64,000 nt of DNA from Planctomycetales bacterium (GTDB taxonomy: Bacteria; 4484-113; JAFGCY01). Under the pieces are notes generated by a model, which was not told the DNA's origin, ran no database searches, and saw only the letters and a program-made list of their open reading frames with translations. This document shows, one piece after another, positions 9,137 through 27,174 of the stretch (positions within the stretch are counted from its first letter, which is position 1; each line of letters starts with the position of its first letter). Location: NCBI GenBank assembly GCA_022646745.1, contig CP060262.1, positions 1,495,149 to 1,559,148 of the forward strand, in the 5' to 3' direction. The translations under genes were made by a program, and so were the position numbers.

Positions 9137-9183
9137 GATGGCCCGCCGGCAGGCGGAATAGATCGGAAGGCTGGACGAGCGGA

Positions 9184-11883: not shown

Positions 11884-11955
11884 CCATTTCCAGCACCTGC
11901 CGCTGATTGGCAAACCGTCCGCAATTGAAGGGTGTACGCGCCGGTATTGCATAAT

Positions 11956-14447: not shown

Positions 14448-14530
14448 GGAAGCGTTCTGGCCAGGGTCCGGGAAACTGAGCGGGACTTGTAATTTCCCCT
14501 GCGTCTGGTTAAGCTGGACTGGGGAGTTTG

Positions 14531-15841
14531 ATGTCCAGACTGAAACGGACCTTGCTGCTTTGGCTGGCAGGCTTTGCAACCTGCCTGTTTGTGCTTTCCT
14601 GCGGCAGCCGGGCGAATGTCAATCCAGATCCCGGTGACGGACCGCAAGCAGTTGCCCCGATGGACCTGCCGGCACCTTCAGCAATCAGGCTGCCCTCCGA
14701 AACCCAGAGCGCTTACCTCAAGCAGGCCACTGATTTCGAGCAGGACCTGCCGTTTCGCAATGTCGGCATGATCGGCGACAGGCTGGGATTCATCCCGGCC
14801 AAGTTCGACCCGATCTCATATGCGCTGTACTGGCTGAACGTGCCGCCCTCCAGCGCAGAGCCGACGGTGCAGTTCGACCCGGGCTTCGACCGGGAGCTGG
14901 CCTGGCTCGGGATTGCCAATTTCTCGACGGACCGCTGGGACTTCGGCCATGGCGAGCAGCTGCAGTACGGCCCACAGCACAGGCAGGCGGGGATGATCCT
15001 CGTGGCTGTGGTCTGCACGAACTATGACGAACTGGAATGGCTGGTGGCCGGCGGCAGCGCGCCACCCTTCGTGAAGAGCGTCAGCCCGCGGGCCATGTCA
15101 GCCGGCACTGTCAACGACTTCCGCGTCAGCTTCACCGATGACCCGGCCCAGAGCTACAGCTGGCAGTTCGGCGGCGGGCTGTCGATCACGCAGTCCAGCC
15201 TGGCCAACCCGAAGTACAGCGTGCTGACACCCGGCGACTACAGCGGCACGCTGACCGTTGCCAACTCCGCCGGCACCGTGGTCCACGACTTCAGCTACAG
15301 CGTGCTGCCCGCCACGCAGTACGAGCCGCTTCACCTGTACGCCGTCCCCTCGAAGAGCATGGTGTTCGCCGGTGAGGAAATCACGGTCTCGATCCGCACC
15401 GGGCTGATCCCGCAGTCCGAGGCGGCCGTGACAGCGCGCGTGGCGCTGCAGTTCCCGACCGGCCTGCAGTATGTTTCCGACAGCTTCAACACCGGCGCAC
15501 CGGGTGGGGAGAAATGGGCAATCGACGGCTTCTGGGCACTGCAGCCGGATGACGACGCATTCTTCCTGAGCTACCCGGACAGCTGGCTGGCGGAAGTGCC
15601 GGGGCCGGGCAGCGGCCTGCAGCACATGGAGATCTCGCTGGCCGCAGCCAAACTCACGCCGCAGTTCGGCAGTGGCGTGCTGTGCAACCTGAAGCTGAAG
15701 TGCAGCGAGCCGGGGACCTATGCACTGTCTTTCCTCGAGGCGACGGATGTGGTTGTCACATCCTTCACGACGATGGAAGGCGAGGTGCTCTGGCACGACA
15801 TTTCAAACGAAGGCCAACCCAGCATCACGGTGCTTCCCTGA
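14531..15841 (+). CDS. hypothetical PKD-domain lipoprotein
   Basis: Lipobox VLSCGS. PKD-like segment (SVSPRAMSAGTVNDFRVSF..YSWQFGGG). ATG at 14531 (the track starts at TTG 14528). Confidence 0.5.
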   Translation: MSRLKRTLLLWLAGFATCLFVLSCGSRANVNPDPGDGPQAVAPMDLPAPSAIRLPSETQSAYLKQATDFEQDLPFRNVGMIGDRLGFIPAKFDPISYALYWLNVPPSSAEPTVQFDPGFDRELAWLGIANFSTDRWDFGHGEQLQYGPQHRQAGMILVAVVCTNYDELEWLVAGGSAPPFVKSVSPRAMSAGTVNDFRVSFTDDPAQSYSWQFGGGLSITQSSLANPKYSVLTPGDYSGTLTVANSAGTVVHDFSYSVLPATQYEPLHLYAVPSKSMVFAGEEITVSIRTGLIPQSEAAVTARVALQFPTGLQYVSDSFNTGAPGGEKWAIDGFWALQPDDDAFFLSYPDSWLAEVPGPGSGLQHMEISLAAAKLTPQFGSGVLCNLKLKCSEPGTYALSFLEATDVVVTSFTTMEGEVLWHDISNEGQPSITVLP

Positions 15842-15845
15842 AGCA

Positions 15846-15935
15846 GCAAACAGGGAACAGGGAACTGGGAACTGGAAGAAAAAGATTGTTGCAATGATGA
15901 TTCGTTCGCTGTTCGCAGTTCCCTGTTCGCCATTT
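15846..15935. terminator. convergent-gene hairpin with tandem GGGAAC(A/T) heptads
   Basis: acagggaacagggaactgggaactgg pairs with downstream cagttccctgttcgc, followed by a T-rich run. Lies between convergent genes that end at 15841 and 15941. Confidence 0.35.
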
Positions 15936-15940
15936 CCGCA

Positions 15941-16795
15941 TCATCCACTGCGCTTCAGCAGCCCCGTGCGCTTGGCATACTTCTCCGCCAGGAGGAAGAT
16001 CAGGTAGCCCAGCGGCAGGAAGATCGCGCCGGTTGCCACCAGCCCCGCCATCTCGTTGCCAAGCTGGCTGAGCGGTGCACCCTCCAGCAGCGCCTTCCTC
16101 TGCGCCGTCAGTGCCCAGTAGGCCGGGCTGGCAATCGCCGCCCCCTGCAGCCATGTGGGCAGCACGCTGATCGGGTAGTACACGCCGCTGATCAGCAGGA
16201 TGATCGCGAGGATGATGTGCGTACCCTGCGCCCCCTTCTCCGGGCTGATCAGCGGCAGCGTGGCCGCGATCAGGCCCAGCCCGACGACTGCGAAACTGCC
16301 GACCACCAGCACCACCAGTGAACTGAGGATGTTGGCATTGCTCAGGTCAATGTGGAAAAACCAGACGAGGAGGCCCATCATCAGGATGATCCTGACAATG
16401 CCGTACAGCACTGCGAATGCACACACGCCGAACAGGTGCGTGAGCCGGTGGATCGGCGCCATGAAGGTGTACTCCAGCGTGCCCTCCCAGCGTTCCCAGG
16501 CGACGGTTTCCGCCACGATGATGAACAGCACTGAGAGATAACTCCACATGATTGCGCCGATCAAGAGGTAGAACACGTAGGGCTGCTTGCCGGCGTAGTC
16601 CGGGGCTGCGCCGCTGGACATGCCGATCAGGCCGATGATCACTGCGTTGATCAGGTTGTAGAACAGCCAGACGATGTCCCAGCCGAGGTAGCGCTTCGTC
16701 AGGTCGATGTCGCGCATGATGAACGCGCGGATCGCCGACAGCTCCCGCATGATGCGGCTGCCGCGGCCCTCGACGCGTTGTTGGTTCACAGACAT
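15941..16795 (-). CDS. ABC-2 type transporter permease
   Basis: Six predicted TM helices of the ABC-2 family type (RAFIMRDIDLTKRYLGWDIVW). Start ATG 16795 has an SD (AAGGAGA, 6-nt spacing). The ORF extends to 16888, but that stretch has no SD. Confidence 0.65.
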   Translation of the reverse strand: MSVNQQRVEGRGSRIMRELSAIRAFIMRDIDLTKRYLGWDIVWLFYNLINAVIIGLIGMSSGAAPDYAGKQPYVFYLLIGAIMWSYLSVLFIIVAETVAWERWEGTLEYTFMAPIHRLTHLFGVCAFAVLYGIVRIILMMGLLVWFFHIDLSNANILSSLVVLVVGSFAVVGLGLIAATLPLISPEKGAQGTHIILAIILLISGVYYPISVLPTWLQGAAIASPAYWALTAQRKALLEGAPLSQLGNEMAGLVATGAIFLPLGYLIFLLAEKYAKRTGLLKRSG

Positions 16796-16925
16796 TGCTT
16801 GTCTCCTTTTGAGGACCTGGGAGCTTGGATCTTGGGTGTAGGGCAGGTGCAATGCCTTGGGTATTGCCCTGGGCACATTGTCGCGCATTGCGCGCCACTG
16901 ATGCCGGTCTGCTACACCTTACAAC

Positions 16926-17468
16926 CTAGCTCCCAGTTCCTTGATTCCATTCCTGGCGCGTGATCGCGTAGTAGGCGACCCCATGCCAGTTGCCACGGCT
17001 GCAGAACTCACAGGGCTTCAGGCCCCTGAGCTGCATGCCGCTCAGTTCCATGCTGCGCCGGGCAGCCCGGTGGCTGTCCAGCGTGTCCCCCCGGACGGTG
17101 CCCAGCGGGTGGTTGCCAAACAGCCAGCCGATCACCAGCCGCTTGGCCTCAACGCCGTATCCCCGCCCGCGCAGCTCCGGGTGGATGCGGGTGCCAAGCG
17201 TTGCCGACATCCTGAACCCGTCGGTGGATTCATAGTACTCGTTGCCGATGTGGCGGCCCGTTGCCAGCTCCTCGATCGCGAAGCAGCCGCGCTCGTCCAT
17301 GAACAGGCCGCTGCCTGCAAAGGCCTGCCTGTCGCGCATGCCCGGCGGGTTGATCGGCCCCCAGAAGGGATTGCCCTCCTTCTGCTCAAGTTGGCGCCAG
17401 GCCCGGTACTCCCCGTAGTCGCGGTAGGGCCTGAGCCGGATCCGCTCTCCGTTGACAATCAACTGCAT
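16926..17468 (-). CDS. GNAT family N-acetyltransferase, RimL/RimJ-like (array member 1)
   Basis: N-terminal IRLRPYRD motif. Core FAIEELATGRHIG. Motif A RGRGYGVEAKRL. C-terminus WNQG. SD AGGAGG. Confidence 0.75.
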   Translation of the reverse strand: MQLIVNGERIRLRPYRDYGEYRAWRQLEQKEGNPFWGPINPPGMRDRQAFAGSGLFMDERGCFAIEELATGRHIGNEYYESTDGFRMSATLGTRIHPELRGRGYGVEAKRLVIGWLFGNHPLGTVRGDTLDSHRAARRSMELSGMQLRGLKPCEFCSRGNWHGVAYYAITRQEWNQGTGS

Positions 17469-17469
17469 T

Positions 17470-18036
17470 TCAGCTGGCCCTCCTGACTGCGTGCCGGTAG
17501 TCCATCGCCGCCCAATCGCTGCGCAGCAGCTGGAAGGACAGCGTGCCTTCCCGCTGGCCATGCCGCCAGTGCACACAGGGCTTCAGCCCGGCCTGCCGCA
17601 TGCCACAGAGCTCCATGCCACGGATGGCGGCTGCATGCGTTGCCACTGTGATCGCGAACAGCGATTCCAGCGGGTAGTTCTCGAACAGGTAGCAGGCCAT
17701 CAGCTGCTTTGCCTCAACACCGTATCCGCGGCCCTGCCAGGCCGGACGGATGAATGTGCCGAGGTATGCGCTGATGCCCGGCAGCACACCCGTGCTGCTT
17801 TCCTCATAGCCAATCAGCGACCCGCTTTCCCGGCAGGCGACGGCGAAGATGTTCATGCCGGACTCGGAGATGTATCCGGCCGGTTCGAACTCCCGGCGCT
17901 GTCCGGCGATTGGCCAGTGGTGCGGTCCCCACTGGTCATTGCCGCACTCCAGTTCCTCGTGCACAAGCGTGAGGTATTCATCGACATCCCTGAACGGCCG
18001 GATAAGTGCCCGCTGGCCTTCATAAACCGTGTACAT
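17470..18036 (-). CDS. GNAT family N-acetyltransferase, RimL/RimJ-like (array member 2)
   Basis: MYTVYEGQRALIRPFRD. QGRGYGVEAKQL. C-terminus WAAMDYRHAVRRAS. SD GGAGGA with 6-nt spacing to ATG 18036 (the track starts at GTG 18042). Confidence 0.8.
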   Translation of the reverse strand: MYTVYEGQRALIRPFRDVDEYLTLVHEELECGNDQWGPHHWPIAGQRREFEPAGYISESGMNIFAVACRESGSLIGYEESSTGVLPGISAYLGTFIRPAWQGRGYGVEAKQLMACYLFENYPLESLFAITVATHAAAIRGMELCGMRQAGLKPCVHWRHGQREGTLSFQLLRSDWAAMDYRHAVRRAS

Positions 18037-18604
18037 GTCCACTCCTCCTTATTCCATGCCGGTAGTCCATCGCTGCCCACTCGCTGCGTGTAAGGTGGTA
18101 ATAGACTACGGCCTCATAGCGGCCCTGCCGGTAATGCACCGCCGGCCGGCAGCCGATGTAATTCATTCCACTCAGTTCCAGCCCACGGCGGGCCGGGGCA
18201 TGCGTTGACAATGTGTCAGCCATGATGCACTGCAAGGGCAAGTTCTCGAACAGCAGGCAGAACATCAGCTGCTTGGCTTCCATCCCGAAGCCGCGCTTCT
18301 GGTGAAGCGGGCGGATGAATGTGCCAACCCAGGCCACGAGGCGTGGCAATGTCAGCGGGCCGACCTCCTCGTAGCCGGCCACTTCGCCGGTGTCCAGCCG
18401 CTCAATACACATCATCAGTGAGCCGTCGGCTGACAGCATGCCATTCTCGTCAAACTGTCTGCGCAATTCATGCCCGCTGTGGTGCATCGGCCCCCAGTGG
18501 GCGTTCGGCTCGGCATGCTCCTCATGCACCAGCTGCAGCATCTCGTCTGCATCCCTGAAGGGCCGCAGCCGGACCAGTTGTCCTTCGTAAACCGTATGCA
18601 TCAT
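18020..18604 (-). CDS. GNAT family N-acetyltransferase, RimL/RimJ-like (array member 3; C-terminal extension overlapping member 2)
   Basis: MMHTVYEGQLVRLRPFRD. KRGFGMEAKQL. C-terminus WAAMDYRHGIRRSGHVHGL extends 6 aa past the family consensus end and overlaps the next gene by about 17-23 nt. Confidence 0.75.
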   Translation of the reverse strand: MMHTVYEGQLVRLRPFRDADEMLQLVHEEHAEPNAHWGPMHHSGHELRRQFDENGMLSADGSLMMCIERLDTGEVAGYEEVGPLTLPRLVAWVGTFIRPLHQKRGFGMEAKQLMFCLLFENLPLQCIMADTLSTHAPARRGLELSGMNYIGCRPAVHYRQGRYEAVVYYHLTRSEWAAMDYRHGIRRSGHVHGL

Positions 18605-19158
18605 CAGCTCCTGTGCACCCTGTGCCTGTAATCCATTGCCAGCCAGGCAGTGCGTGACAGGTTGAAATAGACCCGGTTGGCATACCTGCCGGCGCTGAAA
18701 TAGCTGGTGGCCTCACAACCCAGTGGCTGCATGCCGCAGAGCTGCAGTCCGCGGATGGCGCGGCTGTGCCCCGCCAGTGTCACCGCGAATATGTTCTCCA
18801 GCGGAAAGTTGTCAAACAGCAGGCAGGCCGCCAGCAGCTTTGCCTCAACGCCGTAGCCCCGGCGGCGGTGTCCTTCGAGCACATGCGTGCCCAGCCAGGC
18901 ACCGAGCCGATGCGGATGGATGTTCTCCTCGCCAACGAGCCGTCCCGTGCTGATTTCCTCGATTGCCATGCAGTATTCCTTCTGCTCATTCATTCCGCTG
19001 TAGTCATTGAACAGCGGACGATTCTGCTGCACGCTCTCGAACCAGGGACCCCAGTGCTCGCCGGGCTCATCAATGCCGATGCAGGCCAGGCTGTCCCATT
19101 CCGCGAGATCCCGGAATGGCCTGATCCTGACCTGTGGTCCTGTGTAGGTTGTGTACAT
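18604..19158 (-). CDS. GNAT family N-acetyltransferase, RimL/RimJ-like (array member 4)
   Basis: MYTTYTGPQVRIRPFRD. RRGYGVEAKLL. C-terminus WLAMDYRHRVHRS. SD GAGGAG with 6-nt spacing. Stop overlaps the member 3 start as TGATG. Confidence 0.8.
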   Translation of the reverse strand: MYTTYTGPQVRIRPFRDLAEWDSLACIGIDEPGEHWGPWFESVQQNRPLFNDYSGMNEQKEYCMAIEEISTGRLVGEENIHPHRLGAWLGTHVLEGHRRRGYGVEAKLLAACLLFDNFPLENIFAVTLAGHSRAIRGLQLCGMQPLGCEATSYFSAGRYANRVYFNLSRTAWLAMDYRHRVHRS

Positions 19159-19160
19159 GC

Positions 19161-19715
19161 TCAGCTCCTCTGCACCCTGTGGCGGTAGTCCATCGCCTCC
19201 CATTCACTGCGCAGCAGCTGGAAGTACACCGTGTCAACAAAGTGTCCTCGTACAAAATGGGATAAGCGGGTTCTGCCGACCTGCCGGAAGCCGACGGCCT
19301 CAAGGCCGGCGCGGCTGCGGCTGTGAACCGCCGTGGTATCGGACCATAGGGACTCGACCGGGAAGTTCTCAAACAGGAAGCAGAATGCCAGCAGCTTGGC
19401 CTCGCGCCCGAAGCCCTGGCTCATCTGCGCAGGAACAATGCCCGTCGCCGGGAAGGCGGATAGTTGCCAGCGGCCGATGCCGCAGTATTCCAGCCCGACG
19501 AATTCGCCGTTGTCAGTGCGCTCGATCGCGAAGGCGAAACTGTCCATTGAGATGGACAAGCGCTGCCACTCCGACGCGCTGCGCGCCGCCACATCCCACT
19601 GGATGCCGAGGTGCTCGTTGGGCGAGACCGCGTAGTTGCGTACATAGCCGGAGAACTCCGCCTCGCTGGCGAAGGGCCTGATCCGTACCTTCTCTCCTGT
19701 GTAAGTCGTATACAT
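19161..19715 (-). CDS. GNAT family N-acetyltransferase, RimL/RimJ-like (array member 5)
   Basis: MYTTYTGEKVRIRPFAS. GFGREAKLL. C-terminus WEAMDYRHRVQRS. SD AGGAG with 6-nt spacing to ATG 19715 (the track starts at TTG 19721). Confidence 0.8.
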   Translation of the reverse strand: MYTTYTGEKVRIRPFASEAEFSGYVRNYAVSPNEHLGIQWDVAARSASEWQRLSISMDSFAFAIERTDNGEFVGLEYCGIGRWQLSAFPATGIVPAQMSQGFGREAKLLAFCFLFENFPVESLWSDTTAVHSRSRAGLEAVGFRQVGRTRLSHFVRGHFVDTVYFQLLRSEWEAMDYRHRVQRS

Positions 19716-19717
19716 GT

Positions 19718-20272
19718 TCAACTCCTGGCAACTCCGTGCCGGTAATCCATCCGTTCCCAGTCCTTACGCAGCAGCTGGTACCAGACCTGGCCCTCGTTCT
19801 CCCCCTGCGATGGGAAGGCACAGGCCAGGATCCCGGCGAAGCGGTAGCCGATCGCCTCCAGCCCGGCGATCGCGCGGCTGTGCGTTGCCACCGTGTCAGA
19901 CCACAGTGACTCAATCGGGAAATTCTCGAACAGGTGGCAACTGGCCAGCAGCTTGGCTTCACGGCCGAAGCCGTTGTGCCAGTGCCGCTCCAGCAGTCCG
20001 GTGCCGGTGAAGCCGCTGAGTTGCCAGCGGCCCAGCCCGCAGGTGATCACACCAGCCAGCTCCCCCGAGTCCAGCCTGTCAACCGCAAAGCGGCAGACCG
20101 TATCCTCGGTCGGGAACAGATTCCAGACCTGCAAGGCTGAATTGGCAAAGTACCACTGCGGCCCGCGGTGGGCATTCGGCACCACTGCGTAATCGCGCGT
20201 GAAGCCGGCCCATTCCGCTTCCGAGGCGAATGGCCTGATGCGCACCAGTTGTCCCGTATATGTCGTGAACAT
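19718..20272 (-). CDS. GNAT family N-acetyltransferase, RimL/RimJ-like (array member 6)
   Basis: MFTTYTGQLVRIRPFAS. GFGREAKLL. C-terminus WERMDYRHGVARS. Confidence 0.8.
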   Translation of the reverse strand: MFTTYTGQLVRIRPFASEAEWAGFTRDYAVVPNAHRGPQWYFANSALQVWNLFPTEDTVCRFAVDRLDSGELAGVITCGLGRWQLSGFTGTGLLERHWHNGFGREAKLLASCHLFENFPIESLWSDTVATHSRAIAGLEAIGYRFAGILACAFPSQGENEGQVWYQLLRKDWERMDYRHGVARS

Positions 20273-20274
20273 TG

Positions 20275-20829
20275 TCAGCCTCGCCTGACGCTCTGCCTGA
20301 TCGGGAGCTTCTCCCAGTCCTCCCGCATGATCTGGTACTTCACCCTGGCAACCCGCGTGCCCCTGAAGCGGAATGAACAGGGGATCGTGCCGACATGCCT
20401 GAAGCCCAGCGCTTCCAGCCCGGCCCGCGCCCGGGTGTGTACCGAAAGGGTGTCGGCCCAGACGGACTCAATCGCGAAGTTCTCGAACAGGTGGCACATT
20501 GACAGCAGCTTGGCCTCGCGGCCGAAACCCAGGTGCCAGTGCTCCCGCAGGATCTCCGTGCCGACGCTGGCCGCCAGCTGGTAGGTGCCGAGCACCGCAC
20601 TGACCCAGCCGATGGCCTCACCGCTGTCCCGCCGTTCGATGCAGAAGCGTTCGGCGGCATCATGCGTGATCGAATTGCCAAAGCGCTTGCGGCTCTTGAT
20701 CGCGCGGTGCCAGTCGTCACCCCAGAAGTCACTGAGGGTGATGAACTGGCGGCTGGAGAACTTCCACAGCTCATCCGCATCCCGGAAGGGACGCAGCCTG
20801 ACCTGCTCACCTGTGTAGACAACATGCAT
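20275..20829 (-). CDS. GNAT family N-acetyltransferase, RimL/RimJ-like (array member 7)
   Basis: MHVVYTGEQVRLRPFRD. GFGREAKLL. C-terminus WEKLPIRQSVRRG. SD GGAG with 6-nt spacing. Confidence 0.8.
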   Translation of the reverse strand: MHVVYTGEQVRLRPFRDADELWKFSSRQFITLSDFWGDDWHRAIKSRKRFGNSITHDAAERFCIERRDSGEAIGWVSAVLGTYQLAASVGTEILREHWHLGFGREAKLLSMCHLFENFAIESVWADTLSVHTRARAGLEALGFRHVGTIPCSFRFRGTRVARVKYQIMREDWEKLPIRQSVRRG

Positions 20830-20852
20830 TTCTCACTCCAATAGTGGTTAGT

Positions 20853-20896
20853 AGTCAGTGGTCAGAATTCAGATCACTGACCTCAGACCACTGACT
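20853..20896. repeat. palindromic spacer element (GTCAGTGGTCAGA..TCAGACCACTGACT)
   Basis: Near-perfect 14-bp inverted repeat with a 16-nt loop in the 65-nt gap between array members 7 and 8. Same motif family as the spacers at 22604..22666 and 23224..23288. Confidence 0.6.
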
Positions 20897-21461
20897 ACCG
20901 GCCTCTCACCACTGTCTGCCGGATCGGCATCCTCTCCCAGTCCTCACGCATCACCTGGTACAGCGGCACGGCGACGTTCCTGTCACCATGCCAGTGGATG
21001 CAGCGGTACAGCCCGACCCGACGCATCCCGATAGCCAGCAGTCCGGCCTGGGCGCGGGTGTGCTCCGCCGTGGTATCCGCCCAGACAGTCTGGATCGGGA
21101 AATTCTCGAACAGGTGGCACAGCATCAGGAGCTTGGCCTCACGGCCGAAGCCCCGGCTCCAGTGCCGCCGGTCCACCACGGTGCCGAGCCATGTTGCCAG
21201 CCGGCCCGCCGGCGGCACACCGAAGCTTTCGATGCCGACACACTCTCCGGTGTCAAGCCGCTCGATTGCCAGGCTGTTCTCGCCCTTGTCATCCAGCAGT
21301 TCGCCGTCACTGAACTCGCGGTCAAGCTGGCTGGCAACTGTATGGTACGGCCCCCAGAAATCACTGTATGTGAACTCACGGGAGGCCTGCAGCTGCTGCC
21401 ATTCCTGCAGGTCCCTCACAGGACGCAGCCTGACCAGTTCGCCTGTATAGACATGGTTCAT
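20895..21461 (-). CDS. GNAT family N-acetyltransferase, RimL/RimJ-like (array member 8)
   Basis: MNHVYTGELVRLRPVRD. GFGREAKLL. C-terminus WERMPIRQTVVRGR. SD GGAGAGGA. Confidence 0.8.
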   Translation of the reverse strand: MNHVYTGELVRLRPVRDLQEWQQLQASREFTYSDFWGPYHTVASQLDREFSDGELLDDKGENSLAIERLDTGECVGIESFGVPPAGRLATWLGTVVDRRHWSRGFGREAKLLMLCHLFENFPIQTVWADTTAEHTRAQAGLLAIGMRRVGLYRCIHWHGDRNVAVPLYQVMREDWERMPIRQTVVRGR

Positions 21462-22021
21462 CAGTTTCCTCTCCTGACTGTCTGCCTGATCGGCATTGCT
21501 TCCCAGTCACTGCGCATCAGCTGGTAGTCCAGGATGTCAACATACTTCCCGTGCCAGTGGTAATGCCGCAGGCCGCCGGCCAGCCGGAATCCACAGGCCA
21601 GCAGTCCGCGTGATGCGGGCTCATGCTCGCCGGTGGTGCCGGCCCATACCGACTGCAGCGGGTAGTTCTCGAACAGGTGGCACAGCTTCAGCAGCTTCGC
21701 CTCCCGCCCCAGGCCGTGGCCCCAGCGTGACTCGAGCACGAATGTTGCCAGCCAGCAGGACAGCTCACCGGCCGAGGGCGTGCCATGCAGCGCCACACCT
21801 GCCACCACACCGTCACTGAGGTCCTCGATCGCATGGCAGGCTTCCTCGCCGCCGAGCAGGCCGTCAGCCTCGAATGCCTGCCTGAGCGCTGGTTCGCTAC
21901 TGTGCCAGGGACCCCAGAATGCATTCATGTGCAGGTCACGCTGGCCCTGCAGCTGCATGTACTCATCAAGGTCCCTGAACGGACGCAGCCGCACTCGCTC
22001 GCCTGTGTAGACGACATGCAT
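21461..22021 (-). CDS. GNAT family N-acetyltransferase, RimL/RimJ-like (array member 9)
   Basis: MHVVYTGERVRLRPFRD. GLGREAKLL. C-terminus WEAMPIRQTVRRGN. ATG 22021 has SD GAGG at 6 nt. The track extends to an alternative upstream start at 22066. Confidence 0.8.
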   Translation of the reverse strand: MHVVYTGERVRLRPFRDLDEYMQLQGQRDLHMNAFWGPWHSSEPALRQAFEADGLLGGEEACHAIEDLSDGVVAGVALHGTPSAGELSCWLATFVLESRWGHGLGREAKLLKLCHLFENYPLQSVWAGTTGEHEPASRGLLACGFRLAGGLRHYHWHGKYVDILDYQLMRSDWEAMPIRQTVRRGN

Positions 22022-22587
22022 CAGTGGCCTCGCTTCACAGATTGCCTGATTGGCAATTGTTCCCATTCATCGCGCAGGATCCTGTAGCAGGGCGATGGCA
22101 ACAGCCTGCCGCCTTTGTACAGGTAGCCGTAATGCTTTCCGGCCAGCTTCAGCCCACAGGCCTCCAGCCCGGCCTTGGCCCGGCTGTGTTCATCAGTCGT
22201 ATCTGACCAGACGCATTCGATCGGGTAGTTCTCGAACAGGTAGCAGAGGTTCAGGAGCTTGGCCTCGCGGCCAAAGCCCTTGCCCCAGTGCTCCCGCGCA
22301 ATGATCGTGCCGAGCCAGGTGTTCGTGCGCGCCGGATTCATCGCGCCGTACTCCTCGAAGCCGACGGCCTCGCCCGTGTCCAGCCGCTCAATCGCGAAGC
22401 AGGAATACTCGTCCGTTGACAGCATCCCGCCTGGCTCAAACTCCTTCTTCTTCTGGGCTTCAGCCCAGTGCCAGTCACCCCAGAACTCGTTGAAGTTGCT
22501 TTCCAGGGCACCCTGCACCTTCATCCATTCATCGAGGTCCCGAAAGGGCCTGATGCGGGTACGCTCACCCGTGTAAACGACTTGCAT
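22021..22587 (-). CDS. GNAT family N-acetyltransferase, RimL/RimJ-like (array member 10)
   Basis: MQVVYTGERTRIRPFRD. GFGREAKLL. C-terminus WEQLPIRQSVKRGH. Stop overlaps the member 9 start as TGATG. Confidence 0.8.
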   Translation of the reverse strand: MQVVYTGERTRIRPFRDLDEWMKVQGALESNFNEFWGDWHWAEAQKKKEFEPGGMLSTDEYSCFAIERLDTGEAVGFEEYGAMNPARTNTWLGTIIAREHWGKGFGREAKLLNLCYLFENYPIECVWSDTTDEHSRAKAGLEACGLKLAGKHYGYLYKGGRLLPSPCYRILRDEWEQLPIRQSVKRGH

Positions 22588-22603
22588 TTCAATACCTCAG
22601 TTG

Positions 22604-22666
22604 ACAGTGGTCAGTGGTCGGTGGTCAGAAATAAGAGGATCTGGCTTCTGACCACTGCCTACTGAC
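22604..22666. repeat. palindromic spacer element with GTGGTC(A/G) iterations
   Basis: cagtggtcagtggtcggtggtcagaa then a 15-nt loop then ttctgaccactgcctactgactac. Lies between array members 10 and 11. Confidence 0.6.
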
Positions 22667-23204
22667 TACTCTCCATCCATTCCTGCCGCGTGATGCCGCA
22701 GTACACGATCCCTGTCCACTCACCGCGCGAGTACCAGTTGACCCGTGTCCGTCCCAGCTCTCGCATCCCGCAGCTCAGCATCCCGCCGATCGCGGCTTCA
22801 TGCTTGGACAGGGTGCCGCCGTAGACCATCTCGACCGGGTAGTTGTCAAACAGCAGCTTCATGGCCAGCAACTTGGCCTCTCGGCCATAGCCCCTGCGCC
22901 AGTATGGCTCAAGGATCATCGTGCCGATCTCGGTGGCGGTGCGGCCTCCCGTCGGGATGCGCAGCACCTCGTAGCCGACCAGCTCCTTCCCGGCCAGGCT
23001 CTCGATTGCCAGGAAGGAGAAGTAGTGCGATTCGTCCAGCATGCCGAAGCGGGCCCAGTCCTGTTCCAGTGCGGACAGCCCGACCCAGCCATAGCCCCAC
23101 CAGTCGTCACGCTGCATCCACAGTTCATGGTTGAGCTGTGCATACTCGACCGCGCTGGCAAAGGGCCTGAGCCGGACCAGACTGCCTTCGATTGTCATTT
23201 GCAA
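22659..23204 (-). CDS. GNAT family N-acetyltransferase, RimL/RimJ-like (array member 11, most divergent of the 11)
   Basis: LVRLRPFAS. RRGYGREAKLL. LFDNYP. Probable TTG start at 23204 with SD GGAG at 7 nt. The first ATG at 23198 has poor SD spacing. Confidence 0.7.
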   Translation of the reverse strand: MQMTIEGSLVRLRPFASAVEYAQLNHELWMQRDDWWGYGWVGLSALEQDWARFGMLDESHYFSFLAIESLAGKELVGYEVLRIPTGGRTATEIGTMILEPYWRRGYGREAKLLAMKLLFDNYPVEMVYGGTLSKHEAAIGGMLSCGMRELGRTRVNWYSRGEWTGIVYCGITRQEWMESSQ

Positions 23205-23223
23205 ATCAGTGCTCCTTCGGAGC

Positions 23224-23288
23224 GGTCAGTGGTCGGTAGTCAGAAGTCAGATCAATTCATCTGCTTTAATCTGACCACTGACCACTGA
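23224..23288. repeat. palindromic spacer element (GGTCAGTGGTCGGTAGTCAGA..TCTGACCACTGACCACTGAC)
   Basis: Inverted repeat between array member 11 and the 12th GNAT gene. Confidence 0.6.
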
Positions 23289-23870
23289 CTACTTCCCGGC
23301 GAATTCCCGCCGCTGCTGCTCGGCCAGTTCGCGGTAGGCCGGTGCGATCCAGCCGTAGTGGTGCACCGCCACCGGTTCACCGAGCCACATCTGCATGCGC
23401 TCGAACACAACCTCCAGCTCATAGCCGCAGTCCTTCAGCCAGCCGGCCTTGGCGGCCTCCGGTTCGATGATCTCGCAGCCGATCCTGACGGGGTCGTGCC
23501 AGTCCATCATCAGCGACTCATAGGCCTTCAGGATGTCCATGCCGACTGCGTCGCGGTCAGCGATGTTGTCATCGACATGCACCGTGATCCAGTAGACCCG
23601 GTTCTGCCCGCGCTGCACGAGGAAGCCGACCACACCGCCGGCCTTGCGCACGGCGACGTAGTACTTCTCGCCGCTGCCCCACAGGCCGGGGTCCTTCTCG
23701 TCCTCGAACTTCTTCTTCAGCCGCTGCAGTGTCCAGGGCGTCGGCTTGCGTTCGCAGGGGTTCTGCGCCATCAGCGGTGCCAGCTGCTCGAGGTCCTTCT
23801 CGAGCACGGGGCGCAGCACGATATGCTCGCCCTCCACGAAACCGCGTTCGGTACTTGCGTTGTCAGTCAT
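23289..23870 (-). CDS. GNAT family N-acetyltransferase (distinct subfamily from the array)
   Basis: GEHIVLRPVLEKDLEQL N-terminal motif. GNAT core. SD AGGAGA with 6-nt spacing. Confidence 0.65.
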   Translation of the reverse strand: MTDNASTERGFVEGEHIVLRPVLEKDLEQLAPLMAQNPCERKPTPWTLQRLKKKFEDEKDPGLWGSGEKYYVAVRKAGGVVGFLVQRGQNRVYWITVHVDDNIADRDAVGMDILKAYESLMMDWHDPVRIGCEIIEPEAAKAGWLKDCGYELEVVFERMQMWLGEPVAVHHYGWIAPAYRELAEQQRREFAGK

Positions 23871-23936
23871 TTCCGTTCTCCTTGTATCCCTGTATGCCCG
23901 GCGTTACATTCCGCCGGCCGTTGTCATTCCAGTTCG

Positions 23937-24884
23937 TCAGGACTTGTCCACGTCCTCTTCGGCACTCAGCCACTCATGTCCCGTCAGTTCCATGAACACT
24001 TCCTCCATGCCCGGAAGCGCATCCCCCTCGGAGGCTTCGCCGCGCTCGATGCGGCGCTTCAGCACCTGCTGCTTCAGTTCCTCGGAGGTGCCGCGGGCCA
24101 CGAAGCGGCCATCCGCCATCAGCGCGATCCGGCCGCACAGCCGCTCCACCTCGTCCATGTCATGGCTGGTGAGCAGTACGGTCGCATCATGCGTGCGCTG
24201 CAGTTCGAGGATGTAGTCCTGCACGTCACGCTTGCTGCGCGGGTCCAGTCCGGTGGTCGGCTCGTCCAGCAGCAGGAGCACCGGGCTCGTCAGCAGCGCG
24301 CGGGCGATTGCCACCTTCTGCTGCATGCCGCGGCTCAGTTCCTGCATGCTGTCCGTCAGCCGCCCTTCCTCAAGGCCGAGCTTCTGCAGGATCTCCTCGG
24401 CGCGCTTCAGCGCTGACCTGTCGTCAACGCCGTACAGCCTGGCCGCATAGAGCAGGTTCTCGTTCGGTGAGAGCTTCTTGAAGAATGCCGCATCCACGCT
24501 CACGCGGTTCAGCAGCCGCTGCACCTGGTAGCTCTGGCGCAGCGGGTCCATCCCGAACACGCGGATGTCGCCTGAGCTCTGCTCCAGCAGTGTGCTGATC
24601 ATGCGGATCAGCGTGCTCTTGCCACTGCCGTTGTGCCCGACCACGCCGAAGATCTCGCCACGCCTGAGCTGCATGCTGATGTTGTCAACAGCCACCTTGC
24701 GCTTCTTCGGCCGGACCAGCAGGCGGCCGAGCCTTGCCAGGCCGCTGACCGGTGTCAGCTCCTTCTTCGGCACATTGACGATGAAGTGCTTGCAGAGGCT
24801 GCGCACATCCAGTGCGTCAGTCGCCGCATCGACCTTCATCAATTCCAGTTCAGGGTGCAGGCCCGGGGCCTTCACTGCGTCCAT
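23937..24884 (-). CDS. ABC transporter ATP-binding protein (ABC-2/DrrA-like)
   Basis: Walker A GHNGSGKST. Signature LSRGMQQK. Walker B LLLLDEP. H-loop TSHD. SD GAGGAGA with 6-nt spacing. Confidence 0.85.
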   Translation of the reverse strand: MDAVKAPGLHPELELMKVDAATDALDVRSLCKHFIVNVPKKELTPVSGLARLGRLLVRPKKRKVAVDNISMQLRRGEIFGVVGHNGSGKSTLIRMISTLLEQSSGDIRVFGMDPLRQSYQVQRLLNRVSVDAAFFKKLSPNENLLYAARLYGVDDRSALKRAEEILQKLGLEEGRLTDSMQELSRGMQQKVAIARALLTSPVLLLLDEPTTGLDPRSKRDVQDYILELQRTHDATVLLTSHDMDEVERLCGRIALMADGRFVARGTSEELKQQVLKRRIERGEASEGDALPGMEEVFMELTGHEWLSAEEDVDKS

Positions 24885-24902
24885 TTCCCATCTCCTCGGG
24901 GT

Positions 24903-25724
24903 TCAGTCCCCGCTGCCCCTGCGGCAGCTGTATATCAGTTCGCCCCTGCGCTCGGCAAGCGGGCTGCGCTCATAGTCACTGTAGACGGCCTCGATCTCGA
25001 GGCCGCTTCCCTCAAGCAGCAGTTCGGCCTCATTGTGCATCATCCAGCGCATGCGGAACTGCTCCTCGTCGTTGTCAACCACGCGCCCCTTGCCGTCTAG
25101 CCGCTCGAAGCGCATGCTGACATCGTGTACCTGGCTGCGTGCATCCGCGAGGATCCTCGTGTAGCGACGCAGCAGCCCGCCGTCCTCCGTCTCCGTCTCG
25201 AGGTCCTGGCGCCAGGTGCTGCACGCCTCCGCCATCCTGGCAATGAAAGCCAGGTTGGGATCGAACAGGTCAAACACCAGCCGGCCGTCCTCGCGCAGGT
25301 GCCGCCGCACGGCCGCGAGGCAGCTGTGCTGCTCATCACGGCTGATCAGGTGCATGAAAGCGCGGAACGGAATGATCACCAGGTCGTAGCGTGCGTCGAG
25401 TTCAAAGTCCGCCATGCTGCCCTGCACCACGTGCAGGCGCTGTTGCACAGGCTGTTCCTCAGCCGAGAGCTTTGCGCGGAGCTGAGCCAGCATGGAGCTG
25501 CTCAGGTCAAGGCCCGTCACATTGTGGCCATTGCAGGCCAGCGGGATGCTCACGCGTCCCGTGCCGCAGCCCAGCTCAAGGATGTCCATCGCGGGCCGCC
25601 CGGGCAGTGACAGCCAGAACTGCAGGTCCACCGCATCGCGGAAACCGTACAGTTCGTCATACCAGCGTGCCATGCCGCGGTAGCATTCCTCGTTGTCAGA
25701 AAGTATTCCTGCAGTGATGTCCAT
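24903..25724 (-). CDS. class I SAM-dependent methyltransferase
   Basis: Motif I ILELGCGTGRVS. Acidic loop VTGLDLS. ATG 25724 with SD AGGAG at 6 nt (the track extends to 25793). Confidence 0.8.
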   Translation of the reverse strand: MDITAGILSDNEECYRGMARWYDELYGFRDAVDLQFWLSLPGRPAMDILELGCGTGRVSIPLACNGHNVTGLDLSSSMLAQLRAKLSAEEQPVQQRLHVVQGSMADFELDARYDLVIIPFRAFMHLISRDEQHSCLAAVRRHLREDGRLVFDLFDPNLAFIARMAEACSTWRQDLETETEDGGLLRRYTRILADARSQVHDVSMRFERLDGKGRVVDNDEEQFRMRWMMHNEAELLLEGSGLEIEAVYSDYERSPLAERRGELIYSCRRGSGD

Positions 25725-25835
25725 TGCGTACTCCTGTGCTGTCGGGAGGGACCGGCCAGGTTCTTTGCTGGATGCATGCGTGCACGTGTGCATGCGGGCC
25801 GGTCGGTACTTGCCAGTCTGGGGAAGGGGGGGCCG

Positions 25836-25860
25836 CTTGAGTCAGTCAGACGGACTCAAG
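25836..25860 (-). promoter_or_regulatory. perfect 8-bp stem-loop that overlaps the stop codon of the upstream sORF (candidate regulatory or attenuator hairpin)
   Basis: mRNA sense CTTGAGTC-cgtctgact-GACTCAAG followed by a C-rich tract with no U-tract. The TGA of the sORF lies inside the 5' arm. Confidence 0.4.
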
Positions 25861-25930
25861 AGCAGAAGCAGAACCCAGTGTGGCCGGTACGGATGCGCTT
25901 GCCGTCGAGCGGCTTCCTGATCATGTTCAT
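25856..25930 (-). CDS. candidate small ORF (24 aa, MNMIRKPLDGKRIRTGHTGFCFCS): leader peptide or small-peptide precursor
   Basis: Strong SD GGAGGT 6 nt upstream of the ATG. 17 of 22 codons end in G or C, matching genome bias. Positioned between the sigma-70-like promoter and the methyltransferase. Confidence 0.3.
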   Translation of the reverse strand: MNMIRKPLDGKRIRTGHTGFCFCS

Positions 25931-25982
25931 CTGCGTACCTCCTTTACTGGGATAGGTGCCGCCATTTGGCGGCCAGTGCCGT

Positions 25983-26010
25983 ATTATACCCGGATTGAAT
26001 GAAATGGCAA
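25983..26010 (-). promoter_or_regulatory. sigma-70-type promoter TTGCCA-N16-TATAAT reading into the sORF/MTase/ABC/GNAT unit
   Basis: Minus-strand -35 TTGCCA (plus 26005..26010) and a perfect -10 TATAAT (plus 25983..25988). The predicted 5' UTR contains the GCCGCCA-aat-GGCGGC hairpin at 25958..25973. Confidence 0.4.
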
Positions 26011-26184
26011 GCCCTGCCGGCGGAATAGCCGGGGCAGCGGCCGTGGGCCGACATTATTAGTTTCTGGAAATTCTGGATTTATGCACCGCTGGGGCGGGCA
26101 GGGTGCGCAATAATCGCTGGCGGCGTCAGTCCGGCTGCGCGGCAATCTGGCAACGCGGGGGCAAAGGCTCCCGTGGATGCGTTG

Positions 26185-26433
26185 TCAGCCCGGCAGTTCC
26201 TCGCTGGCCAGGTTGCTCTTGATCTTGCTGAGCATGCGGTTGCGGCATTCCTCCGTGACGGATTCCTGCGCCTCGCAGTTCTTGATCTTGCTGAGCAGCT
26301 TCTCGATCACCTGCTTCTCGCGGGCGCAGTCGCCGCACTTCTCCAGGTGGTCGCGTGTCGCTTCCAGCTCCGCCTCGCTGCTCTCACCGTAGACGAAGTT
26401 GAAAATCACATCCTGAATCTTCTTACAGTCCAT
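26185..26433 (-). CDS. anti-sigma factor, zf-HC2 type (soluble)
   Basis: H-x3-C-x2-C motif HLEKCGDC. Immediately downstream of the ECF sigma gene. Confidence 0.55.
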   Translation of the reverse strand: MDCKKIQDVIFNFVYGESSEAELEATRDHLEKCGDCAREKQVIEKLLSKIKNCEAQESVTEECRNRMLSKIKSNLASEELPG

Positions 26434-26544: not shown

Positions 26545-27174
26545 TCAGTCCTCCTCGACGCCCAGCCAGCGGCGGAGCTTGTTGACTGCGTAGCGCATCC
26601 GCGAAAGCACCGTACTGAGCGGGCATTCGCAGATCTCGGCGATTTCCTCGAAGGTCAGCTCGTGGTAGATCTTGAGGATCACCACGGTCCGTTGCTTTTC
26701 TGGCAACCTGTCTATCAGTACCTTGAGGGTCTCTGAAAAATTCTCACGCTCAAGCACGTTTTCCGGCAGATCCCGGAAATCCTCGATGAAATCCTGGCGC
26801 TCACTGTCGCTGCCCTCGTCGCCCACCGGGGTGTTCAGCGAGAATGTCTGCTTGGCCGCACTCTTCTTCCAGTGGCGCTTGACCTCATTGAGCGCGATCT
26901 TGTAGACCCAGCTGGAGAACTTCTTCTCCGGGTCGAAGTTCTTCGCGCTCTTGAACACCCGCAGGAACACCTCCTGCACGAGGTCCTCGATGTTCTCCCG
27001 CTCGCTGACCTGCTTGCGGATGAAGTTGTAGATCTGCTTGTGGTACCTGTCGAATATCTGGTCGAATGCCGCACCGTCACCGGAGGCCAGGCGCACGACG
27101 AGTTCCTCGTCGCTGCCGGGCTTCGGCACGATCGGCACATCCAGGCTCCGTTTGTTCTGTGCTGTACTTTCCAT
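26545..27174 (-). CDS. RNA polymerase sigma-70 family, ECF subfamily
   Basis: Region 2 (IEDLVQEVFLRVF..FSSWVYKIALNEVK) and region 4 HTH (LTFEEIAEICECPLSTVLSRMRYA). Confidence 0.85.
   Translation of the reverse strand: MESTAQNKRSLDVPIVPKPGSDEELVVRLASGDGAAFDQIFDRYHKQIYNFIRKQVSERENIEDLVQEVFLRVFKSAKNFDPEKKFSSWVYKIALNEVKRHWKKSAAKQTFSLNTPVGDEGSDSERQDFIEDFRDLPENVLERENFSETLKVLIDRLPEKQRTVVILKIYHELTFEEIAEICECPLSTVLSRMRYAVNKLRRWLGVEED

Follow-up and report, generated by a model that had tools for sequence, protein, structure and literature searches.

Why would a bacterial operon carry a dozen acetyltransferase genes between the two genes of an exporter? The question is raised by a stretch of 64,000 nucleotides (nt) of Planctomycetales bacterium DNA (NCBI GenBank assembly GCA_022646745.1, contig CP060262.1, positions 1,495,149 to 1,559,148 of the forward strand), which is referred to here as the window and numbered from its first letter. 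At positions 15941-26010, the open reading frame (ORF) listing, alignment and Pfam scans delimit one co-oriented and tightly packed minus-strand unit, in which a sigma-70-type promoter is followed by a 24-codon leader ORF, a methyltransferase, an ABC ATPase, a divergent GNAT-type gene termed G1, eleven further GNAT genes (W_1 to W_11) and an ABC-2 permease. Comparison with sister cassettes in related genomes, which carry L numbers below, showed the array to be a long-maintained set of specialised enzymes. The reading that we tentatively favour is an inducible battery, tied to translation stress, that modifies and exports amine-bearing inhibitors.

An acetyltransferase array inside an exporter operon

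The genes that follow the leader ORF are listed below in the order of the unit.

24903..25724, minus strand: class I S-adenosylmethionine (SAM) methyltransferase of the peptide/amine N-methyltransferase group, 273 amino acids (Pfam, PDB, NCBIfam)
23937..24884, minus strand: ABC ATPase of the DrrA-like subfamily (Pfam ABC_tran; NCBIfam)
23289..23870, minus strand: G1, divergent GNAT-fold protein of 193 amino acids without the canonical RGxGxEA loop, which marks the cassette
22659..23198, minus strand: W_1, GNAT (Acetyltransf_3)
22021..22587, minus strand: W_2, GNAT, with an AlphaFold2 model (pLDDT 93.5)
21461..22021, minus strand: W_3, GNAT, an extra copy of the W_4 group that is already present in L012
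20895..21461, minus strand: W_4, GNAT
20275..20829, minus strand: W_5, GNAT, basic (pI 9.8)
19718..20272, minus strand: W_6, GNAT, an extra copy of the W_7 group
19161..19715, minus strand: W_7, GNAT
18604..19158, minus strand: W_8, GNAT
18020..18604, minus strand: W_9, GNAT
17470..18036, minus strand: W_10, GNAT, an extra copy of the W_9 group
16926..17468, minus strand: W_11, GNAT, basic (pI 9.3)
15941..16795, minus strand: ABC-2 permease, DrrB-like, 284 amino acids (Pfam ABC2_membrane; NCBIfam)

A total of twelve consecutive GNAT-type genes are found at 16926-23870 on the minus strand. Eleven of them scored above the Pfam gathering threshold for Acetyltransf_3 (PF13302), with a best E value of 7.8e-12, and G1 was the one not matched. 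The cofactor (motif A) loop was observed in the alignment as (R/K)G(F/Y)G(R/V/M)EA in all eleven array members, which are predicted to be working acetyl-CoA enzymes with putative N-acyl transfer activity. Fem- or L/F-transferase-like chemistry, which depends on transfer RNA (tRNA), is unlikely for these proteins because the canonical CoA loop is retained. The model of W_2 has the GNAT fold and the top Foldseek matches of both W_2 and G1 were all GNATs, with E values of 1e-10 to 1e-11. The structures nearest to W_2 are SpeG, RimJ, PA3270, Rv0802c and a lasso-peptide acetyltransferase at identities of 16-22%, and these neighbours of a predicted model give no specific assignment. In addition, the NCBIfam models of RimJ, RimL, RimI, MccE and SpeG had no match among the twelve GNATs. 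The acceptor segment was observed to be acidic in seven of the eleven paralogues, with a net charge of -6 to -8, which is consistent with cationic substrates.

Eight of the ten GNAT-GNAT junctions are tightly coupled, ranging from a 17-nt overlap up to a 2-nt gap. Overlaps of 1 nt in the form of TGATG occur at three junctions of the GNAT genes and gaps of 1-2 nt at four, while W_9 and W_10 (18020..18604 and 17470..18036) overlap by 17 nt, or by 23 nt if a GTG start is used. Three junctions are structured hairpin spacers of 65-90 nt. A Shine-Dalgarno (SD) sequence of the GGAG or GAGG type precedes every gene of the unit. The region contains a single strong promoter, with 11 of 12 matches, and its terminator-like sites were no commoner than in shuffled sequences, with no canonical intrinsic terminator after the leader ORF.

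The first-pass annotation of this stretch had described twelve consecutive GNAT genes in a single coupled unit with an exporter and a methyltransferase, headed by a small ORF and a sigma-70-like promoter, and had listed the conserved GNAT motifs, the conserved cofactor chemistry and strong SD sequences for nearly every member. All of these features were recovered, with G1 joining the other eleven as a GNAT by fold and by hhalign comparison and with an SD sequence at every gene. Its statement that the junctions are tight also held, but it had undercounted them at five of ten, had given the overlap as 23 nt and had placed the spacers at 65-84 nt.

Age and maintenance of the array

The paralogues share 23-54% identity in amino acids and 60-74% in DNA, and the longest near-identity between any array copies is 89% over 55 nt. 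At such levels the paralogues must be old. In a neighbour-joining tree the genes cluster by position and not by genome, as in the example of W_1, L010_1, L007_1 and L008_1. They form collinear orthologue groups across the related genomes, with W_3, W_6 and W_10 as the extra copies of the window. The positional groups and the low DNA identity rule out a recent amplification. They also do away with the earlier suggestion that tandem identity blocks make the locus prone to recombination, since copies that are only 60-74% identical in DNA are poor substrates for homologous recombination.

The array is genuine and not a product of assembly. Its sequence is 100% identical in contigs of two independent assemblies (Logan SRR12358675 and ENA ERZ27309238), and the GTDB genome UBP7 HKST-UBA01 is 96.5% identical over the part of the array that it covers. 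This disposes of the assembly artefact that the first-pass annotation had named as a way to be wrong.

The alpha1-alpha2 segment, which forms part of the acceptor region, had been described as hypervariable and was indeed observed to be the most divergent region between paralogues, with 22% identity compared with 36% overall; the beta6-beta7 region follows with 25%. Within orthologue groups both regions remain similar (64-66% identity). The ratio of nonsynonymous to synonymous substitution rates (dN/dS) against the L012 orthologues is 0.07 for G1 and 0.11-0.15 for W_1 to W_4, and in residues 15-60, which contain the alpha1-alpha2 acceptor segment, it is 0.07-0.14 and no higher than elsewhere. 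The paralogues, including this segment, are therefore under purifying selection. The positive selection that had been anticipated there was not seen, and neither was neutral evolution with pseudogenes; all twelve ORFs are intact. The members of the array are specialised enzymes that have been kept for a long time; they did not arise by a recent amplification, are not decaying neutrally and show no continuing positive selection.

The leader ORF and its RNA

The promoter and the elements between it and the methyltransferase are as follows.

25983..26010, minus strand: sigma-70-type promoter TTGCCA-N16-TATAAT, with its GGGTATAATAC core conserved in all lineages
25958..25973, minus strand: 5'-terminal transcript hairpin GCCGCC-AAAU-GGCGGC, read directly and folded; the stem sequence varies by lineage and the pairing is kept
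25938..25944, minus strand: strong leader SD sequence AAGGAGG
25856..25930, minus strand: leader ORF of 24 codons, MNMIRKPLDGKRIRTGHTGFCFCS
25871..25894, minus strand: anti-SD segment in leader codons 13-20, which pairs with the region of the leader's own SD sequence (RNAalifold; duplex energies against shuffles)
25725..25855, minus strand: spacer between leader and methyltransferase, with a short hairpin that includes the leader stop codon and then a C-rich, G-poor tract resembling a Rho utilisation (rut) site

No other element of the locus is as conserved as the leader ORF. Residues 5-19 (RKPLDGKRIRTGHTG) are near-invariant in the six genomes of the close clade, where nearly all changes are synonymous third-position ones. 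For example, six of the eight variable sites in codons 4-19 are of this kind, and insertions and deletions occur in multiples of three. The last four to five residues are variable in the close clade and their lengths differ by whole codons, with the C-termini FCFCS, FCFFH, FRFFH, FLSI, FFSI and SRFS. Because the variation is nearly all in synonymous third positions and the length changes are of whole codons, the leader is judged to be translated. We noticed that the last five to six codons are rich in phenylalanine (about 20% against roughly 4% expected; window 25856-25875 and equivalents) and that this end lies in a pyrimidine-rich tract running into the C-rich spacer. Selection on either the peptide or the RNA could account for this richness.

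A leader of 23-26 codons with an AAGGAGG-type SD sequence was found in all eight lineages examined. The promoter core is kept in L007, L008, L010, L012, L016, L017 and L021, and the distant cassettes have the same promoter core, 5' hairpin, strong SD sequence and 23-26-codon ORF with unrelated peptides. Pairing of the SD region with ORF codons 11/13-20 (dG -17 to -26 kcal/mol) recurs in each of the eight lineages, and in seven of them the duplex stands out from shuffled sequences with z values of -2.4 to -3.9. The feature of the leader that is conserved across lineages is thus the geometry of its RNA. Of the 100 nt that follow the leader stop codon, 32-43 are C and 18-29 are G, depending on the lineage (window: 40 and 24), whereas the genes of the unit are G-rich on the minus strand. 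No excess complementarity was found between the leader and the ribosome-binding site (RBS) of the next gene, which rules out masking of that site in the manner of ermC or toiL. In its layout the leader is a putative attenuator of the leader-peptide kind, equipped with a rut-like tract and an unusual, self-sequestered SD sequence. A search with the leader DNA pattern found only four species in the GTDB genomes, and no match in the JGI metagenome contigs. The conservation of the leader and its SD:anti-SD hairpin had been overlooked in the first-pass annotation, as had the RtcB genes of the sister cassettes and the kinship of the methyltransferase with peptide-amine N-methyltransferases, both of which are described below.

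G1, the methyltransferase and the pump

G1 has no sequence match in Pfam, NCBIfam or the PDB. Its AlphaFold2 model (pLDDT 91.1) has the GNAT fold (Foldseek E value 1e-11) and the profile of its family aligns with that of the array family with an hhalign probability of 92.5%; G1 is therefore a GNAT by predicted fold and profile-profile comparison. In place of the canonical motif A it carries a DRDxxGxD loop, and its alpha1-alpha2 region contains a near-invariant basic motif, PWTLQRLKKKFED..PGLW, which includes KKK. In L016 (8716-9912) a canonical GNAT forms the N-terminal half and a G1-type domain the C-terminal half of one fused protein, which suggests that G1 and the GNATs work as a pair. The two are separate genes in L022, a relative of L016. 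A search with the G1 profile at E <= 1e-10 recovered only 24 clusters among 1.84 billion representative proteins, and the system is accordingly rare.

The methyltransferase starts at 25724 and has 273 amino acids, compared with 296 for the full ORF. Its best PDB match is 9SOT, the enzyme CorZ (E value 1.3e-37), followed by MtfA, CcbJ and CypM. CorZ methylates the N-terminal amine of the tripeptide myxarylin, a peptide made on the ribosome and modified after translation (RiPP) (PMC12951456). The best NCBIfam match is the daptide RiPP methyltransferase, at 110.9 bits against a cut-off of 175. From these matches the protein is predicted to be an amine N-methyltransferase of the type that acts on small peptides. 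Between the window and L012 it shows 60% amino-acid identity (dN 0.37) compared with 87-96% for its neighbours, and may have an evolutionary history different from theirs.

The two pump proteins are nearest to the subfamilies drrA (TIGR01188, 224 bits against a cut-off of 312) and drrB (TIGR01247, 44 against 223) in NCBIfam. The second-best match of both is the ribosome-associated RbbA.

Sister cassettes and RtcB

The number of GNAT genes varies widely among the sister cassettes. Five are present in L007 and in L008/L009, eight in L010, at least five in L015 and eight in L018/L019, the last with four G1-like genes in addition, whereas L016 and L022 have two each and L017, L021 and L023 one each. 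GNAT genes, often together with RtcB, separate the ATPase gene from the permease gene in every cassette, even in those with a single GNAT. The first-pass annotation had regarded the two pump genes as a normally adjacent pair interrupted by the array; the comparison shows that the split is no such interruption but the conserved and probably ancestral layout of the cassette.

RtcB is an RNA ligase that repairs cleaved tRNA and ribosomal RNA. In six sister cassettes its gene was found between the last GNAT and the permease at the following coordinates.

L015, 3860-5116; L016, 10574-11827; L018, 15476-16732: RtcB RNA ligase
L021, 10352-11706 (split); L022, 10579-11826; L023, 3272-4528: RtcB RNA ligase

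The minimal and ancestral cassette probably consisted of the leader, perhaps the methyltransferase, the ATPase, G1, one GNAT, RtcB and the permease. The operon is specific to a narrow uncultivated lineage, which is listed in public records as UBP7, 4484-113 or 'Planctomycetales bacterium'. We found no description of it in the literature on combinations of tandem GNATs, ABC-2 pumps, RtcB and RiPPs, and this, together with the small number of G1 clusters, agrees with the initial impression that the organisation had not been described.

Two small proteins were noticed in some of the sister cassettes. A conserved ORF of 37 amino acids lies beside the methyltransferase in L016 (6714-6827), L017 (7455-7568) and L018 (7010-7120); it follows the pattern MSVI.DII.VE....SP.W.I.FDDI..LT.R, has no Pfam match and is absent from the clade of the window. 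A very basic protein of 54-58 amino acids with the pattern ...G.G.HR..K.Y.RK.KH... follows the G1-type gene in L015 (2524-2697), L017 (8781-8945) and L018 (14114-14290), and its only Pfam match is a sub-threshold one to DUF7230. The idea that it is an ArfA-like ribosome-rescue factor was not confirmed, as a PDB sequence search returned only spurious matches to designed repeats.

Comparison with known systems

The closest documented parallel in logic is the topAI operon, in which YjhQ is a GNAT-family protein and YjhP a class I methyltransferase. The methyltransferase of the window matches PDB 1nkv weakly (E value 9e-5), which we take to be YjhP. In E. coli the upstream open reading frame (uORF) toiL and Rho jointly make topAI-yjhQP respond to antibiotics that target the ribosome (PMC12121999). 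Like toiL-topAI-yjhQ-yjhP, the present operon is headed by a short translated uORF that sits in a hairpin, and its leader has a rut-like region. Unlike toiL, the uORF pairs with its own SD sequence and not with the RBS of the next gene. The operon also lacks a TopAI toxin and has twelve GNATs and an ABC-2 pump, the peptides are non-homologous, and the regulation proposed here is one that the sequence suggests.

The WhiB7 regulon includes Eis and efflux members. In the WhiB7/WblC and TrcR resistomes a uORF or translation-stress signal turns on GNATs, an ABC protein and RtcB or other repair functions (PMC7157823, PMC10272220), a combination that resembles the content of the cassettes. For example, the Anabaena TrcR regulon under translation stress shows GNATs up 50-320-fold, RtcB 77-fold and an ABC ATPase 112-fold (PMC10272220). 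These are dispersed regulons under a transcription factor, whereas here the genes form one operon with a battery of paralogues. No WhiB- or TrcR-type regulator is present and an ECF sigma/anti-sigma pair adjoins the operon instead.

MccE and RimL had been put forward as precedents for the array. The C-terminal domain of MccE and RimL belong, like the array, to the Acetyltransf_3 family, and acetylation of a toxic aminoacyl compound at its alpha-amine is an idea common to both; the MccE system likewise brings together an exporter, a SAM-dependent enzyme and a gene for a small peptide. However, it differs from the present operon in having an MccB-type adenylyltransferase, MccF and an exporter of the MFS type; none of the mccABCDEF genes, with the MccB adenylyltransferase and the MccF peptidase among them, was found in the operon or in any sister locus. 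With identities of at most 22% to solved GNATs and no NCBIfam match, the likeness is one of fold only and the precedent does not carry over as a specific tie.

The pump resembles DrrAB-type exporters in its separate ATPase and six-helix ABC-2 permease, but both proteins score below the curated cut-offs and their genes are never adjacent. The methyltransferase is closest to RiPP amine N-methyltransferases such as CorZ, CypM and the daptide enzyme, which methylate the free amine of a short peptide. Unlike the clusters of those enzymes, the operon contains no P450, LanB/C, YcaO or other maturase genes. PADLOC returned only generic matches to ATPase and methyltransferase domains and none for the GNATs, G1 or the permease, and neither PADLOC nor NCBIfam gave a match at the level of the whole system.

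A proposed function

The reading that we favour, although it falls somewhat short of an even chance, is that the operon is an inducible battery, tied to translation stress, which modifies and exports amine-bearing inhibitors. The most plausible substrates would be antibiotics that target translation, toxic peptides or aminoacyl analogues. The link to translation stress is drawn because RtcB lies inside the cassette in L015, L016, L018, L021, L022 and L023. A battery that acts on related amines or peptides, followed by export, was also the first proposal made for this locus and it still leads.

The data establish which genes are present, their folds and cofactor motif, their orthology and purifying selection, the architecture of the leader and the rarity of the system. 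What we infer is which substrates are handled, which signal induces the operon, whether Rho takes part and what G1 does. The sigma-70-type promoter would be constitutive and would drive a leader ORF whose SD sequence is locked in a hairpin with codons 13-20, with the C-rich, G-poor spacer next. Under normal translation the downstream genes would be held down at the level of either transcription or translation, with Rho, working on the naked spacer, as the probable agent, and ribosomes stalled on the leader would allow more read-through. The eleven canonical GNATs would use acetyl-CoA with different acceptor pockets so that each N-acetylates a different subset of amines, with G1 as a common partner or adaptor. 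The CorZ/daptide-like methyltransferase would N-methylate amines and the DrrAB-like ABC-2 pump would expel the substrates or products. In the sister lineages, the RtcB of the cassette might repair RNA of the translation apparatus.

Several observations weigh against this proposal. The leader statistics come from only four to five independent lineages, and the classical unmasking model of ermC and toiL is not applicable to a leader that does not pair with the next RBS. The array GNATs are only 16-22% identical to any characterised or solved GNAT, and an NCBIfam scan of all twelve gave a single marginal match, to AAC(6')-Ian (E value 0.0087), and no convincing resistance model. Furthermore, the closest relatives of the methyltransferase are biosynthetic RiPP enzymes and not resistance enzymes, and RtcB was found by tblastn to be absent from the window and its clade, so that the connection with translation repair is through homology of the cassettes only. 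Collinear orthologues kept over a long time would also fit a fixed biosynthetic or housekeeping pathway.

Every component family is already known, as is the idea of an inducible operon for modification and efflux. The unusual features are the enzymes between the pump genes, the pairing of G1 with the GNATs, the 11-12 collinear paralogues, RtcB within the cassette and the self-sequestering leader. Whichever reading is right, an ABC-2 pump whose ATPase and permease genes are kept apart, in a conserved manner, by inserted enzyme genes (and RtcB) has an undescribed architecture. If the battery is real, no known enzymatic unit for resistance and efflux would be as compact or as diversified; one operon, hosted by a lineage without cultured members, would combine a pump and an amine methyltransferase with up to a dozen specialised acetyltransferases and a ribosome-based sensor of its own. 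Its leader, with a self-sequestered SD sequence, would be of a new type, and its GNATs would offer a natural panel with one cofactor scaffold and differing acceptor pockets, useful for the study and engineering of specificity. A new class of pathway would follow if the RiPP or tRNA-linked explanations considered below were true.

Alternative explanations

A RiPP-like pathway survives best among the alternatives, and we regard it as rather unlikely. The 23-26-residue ORF would then act as the precursor, in which a conserved N-terminal leader precedes a variable C-terminal core of four to five residues; proteolysis would take place elsewhere, the methyltransferase and/or the GNATs would cap the amines of the peptide and the ABC-2 pump would export the product. 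The conserved N-terminus and variable C-terminus within the close clade fit such a precursor, as does the layout with the ORF first, a strong SD sequence and a hairpin after the stop codon, which is common for RiPPs. The methyltransferase is closest to CorZ in the PDB and to the daptide enzyme in NCBIfam, both GNAT models reach their highest TM-scores (0.78 and 0.72) against the iterative lasso-peptide acetyltransferase 9iy3, and some sister loci have the 37-amino-acid ORF as a second conserved small ORF beside the methyltransferase, with an S9 peptidase nearby in L018. However, the operon is without a class-defining maturase, a RiPP recognition element (RRE) or a protease, and the daptide score is below its cut-off. 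The distant leaders share no motif even though the enzymes are 45-50% identical, which would not be expected if the enzymes recognise the peptide, and the conserved part of the peptide coincides with the anti-SD element of the RNA. N-methylation and N-acetylation would also compete for one amine, and the 5-11 collinear GNAT paralogues and RtcB would be left unexplained.

Less probable still is a reading in which G1 and the GNATs form a two-part enzyme. The invariant basic face of G1 would dock a common carrier (such as tRNA, nucleotide or ribosome) and the GNATs would each pick an aminoacyl or peptidyl class, giving an N-capping of toxic or mis-made aminoacyl-tRNA, aminoacyl-nucleotide and peptidyl species that is resolved by amino-acid class. 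With links to the RNA ligation of RtcB and to the export step, and with a leader that reports ribosome stalling as its switch, the cassette would then be a damage-control island for translation.

Two other explanations, both of which we consider improbable and neither better placed than the other, give the GNATs endogenous targets. The first is amine homeostasis, where the GNATs would acetylate polyamines or other amines as SpeG does, with methylation in addition, the pump would export the excess and the leader would sense a metabolite through the ribosome. Leader peptides that sense metabolites, such as SpeFL and TnaC, are a precedent for this. SpeG is among the best matches in sequence (profile E value 4e-10) and in structure (TM-scores of 0.72-0.75), the acceptor segments are acidic and MscS channel genes are conserved beside the locus. 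Nevertheless, the identity to SpeG is only 16-20%, which is the level of unrelated GNATs, and no SpeG or PotA-type NCBIfam model matches the GNATs. One or two enzymes would suffice for polyamines, so that 5-11 specialised paralogues are not accounted for, and neither is RtcB; the operon contains no genes of polyamine biosynthesis.

The second is modification of the translation apparatus, in which paralogues of different specificities would acetylate ribosomal proteins or factors in the manner of RimJ and RimL, or aminoacyl- or peptidyl-tRNA, with G1 as a common ribosome- or tRNA-binding subunit and ABC proteins resembling RbbA. The Acetyltransf_3 family includes RimJ and RimL, and TTHA1799 and RimJ are among the top matches. 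The conserved basic KKK motif of G1, the G1-GNAT fusion in L016, RtcB in the sister cassettes and RbbA as the second-best match of both ABC proteins point in the same direction. On the other hand, no RimJ, RimL or RimI equivalog model was matched, the ABC proteins score better as DrrA and DrrB, an export pump would be without an obvious role and the small basic protein was not confirmed as ArfA-like.

That the array is an assembly artefact or a decaying set of pseudogenes without joint function has next to no probability, since, even though mis-assembly can yield tandem paralogues and the source is a metagenome-assembled genome, the independent assemblies are identical over the array, the copies differ too much in DNA (60-74% identity), twelve intact ORFs have SD sequences, dN/dS is 0.07-0.15 and collinear orthologues occur in other genomes.

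Structured spacers and neighbouring genes

The hairpins in and around the unit and the upstream neighbours of the operon are as follows.

23199..23288, minus strand: structured spacer 1, complementary heptad repeats CAGUGGU... and ...ACCACUG (dG -43 kcal/mol, z -7.4)
22588..22658, minus strand: structured spacer 2, the same heptad-repeat element as spacer 1
20830..20894, minus strand: structured spacer 3, the same heptad-repeat element as spacer 1
15850..15945, minus strand: long hairpin between convergent genes, across the permease gene's end (dG -33.4 kcal/mol, z -4.2)
26185..26433, minus strand: soluble zinc-binding anti-sigma factor, HxxxCxxC (Pfam, NCBIfam)
26545..27174, minus strand: extracytoplasmic function (ECF) sigma factor, upstream neighbour (Pfam, NCBIfam)

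Array spacers in the relatives were also observed to be long hairpins, at 9137-9265, 10499-10626, 11191-11319 and 11896-12004 in L007, at 9193-9304 and 9860-9950 in L008 and at 8753-8818 and 9374-9434 in L010. L008 and L010 share with the window the repeats CAGUGGU.../...ACCACUG, and L007 has CUAGGNN.../...CCUAGAA instead. The unit varies from lineage to lineage, the complementarity of the arms is retained and each element stops 10-15 nt before the next SD sequence. These hairpins could be elements of RNA processing or stability, or a small mobile palindrome. The hairpin at 15850-15945 is composed of GGGAAC/GUUCCC-type repeats and is possibly a terminator, perhaps a bidirectional one. An Rfam scan of the whole window at the gathering threshold found no riboswitch and no other family.

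The ECF sigma/anti-sigma pair is syntenic in L007, L008, L010 and L018 and absent beside L016, L017 and L021. The anti-sigma factor has 82 amino acids and an HLEKCGDC motif, resembles RsrA below the cut-off and is without a membrane segment. A methylmalonyl-CoA-epimerase-like protein is also among the upstream neighbours conserved in several lineages, and it is likewise absent beside L016, L017 and L021. At 26051-26070, some 40 nt upstream of the -35 hexamer, is the motif TTTCCAGAAACTAATAATGT, which is conserved in both L010 and L012 and which L007 and L008 have in the form TTTCCC.TACTTATAATGT. It is a candidate operator or second promoter element. Downstream of the cassette, a PKD-domain protein is present in the window and L010. 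Two tandem genes for MscS-type mechanosensitive channels are also located downstream in the window (11932-14447 and 14528-15841) and likewise in L010, and one such gene is found in L007 and L008.

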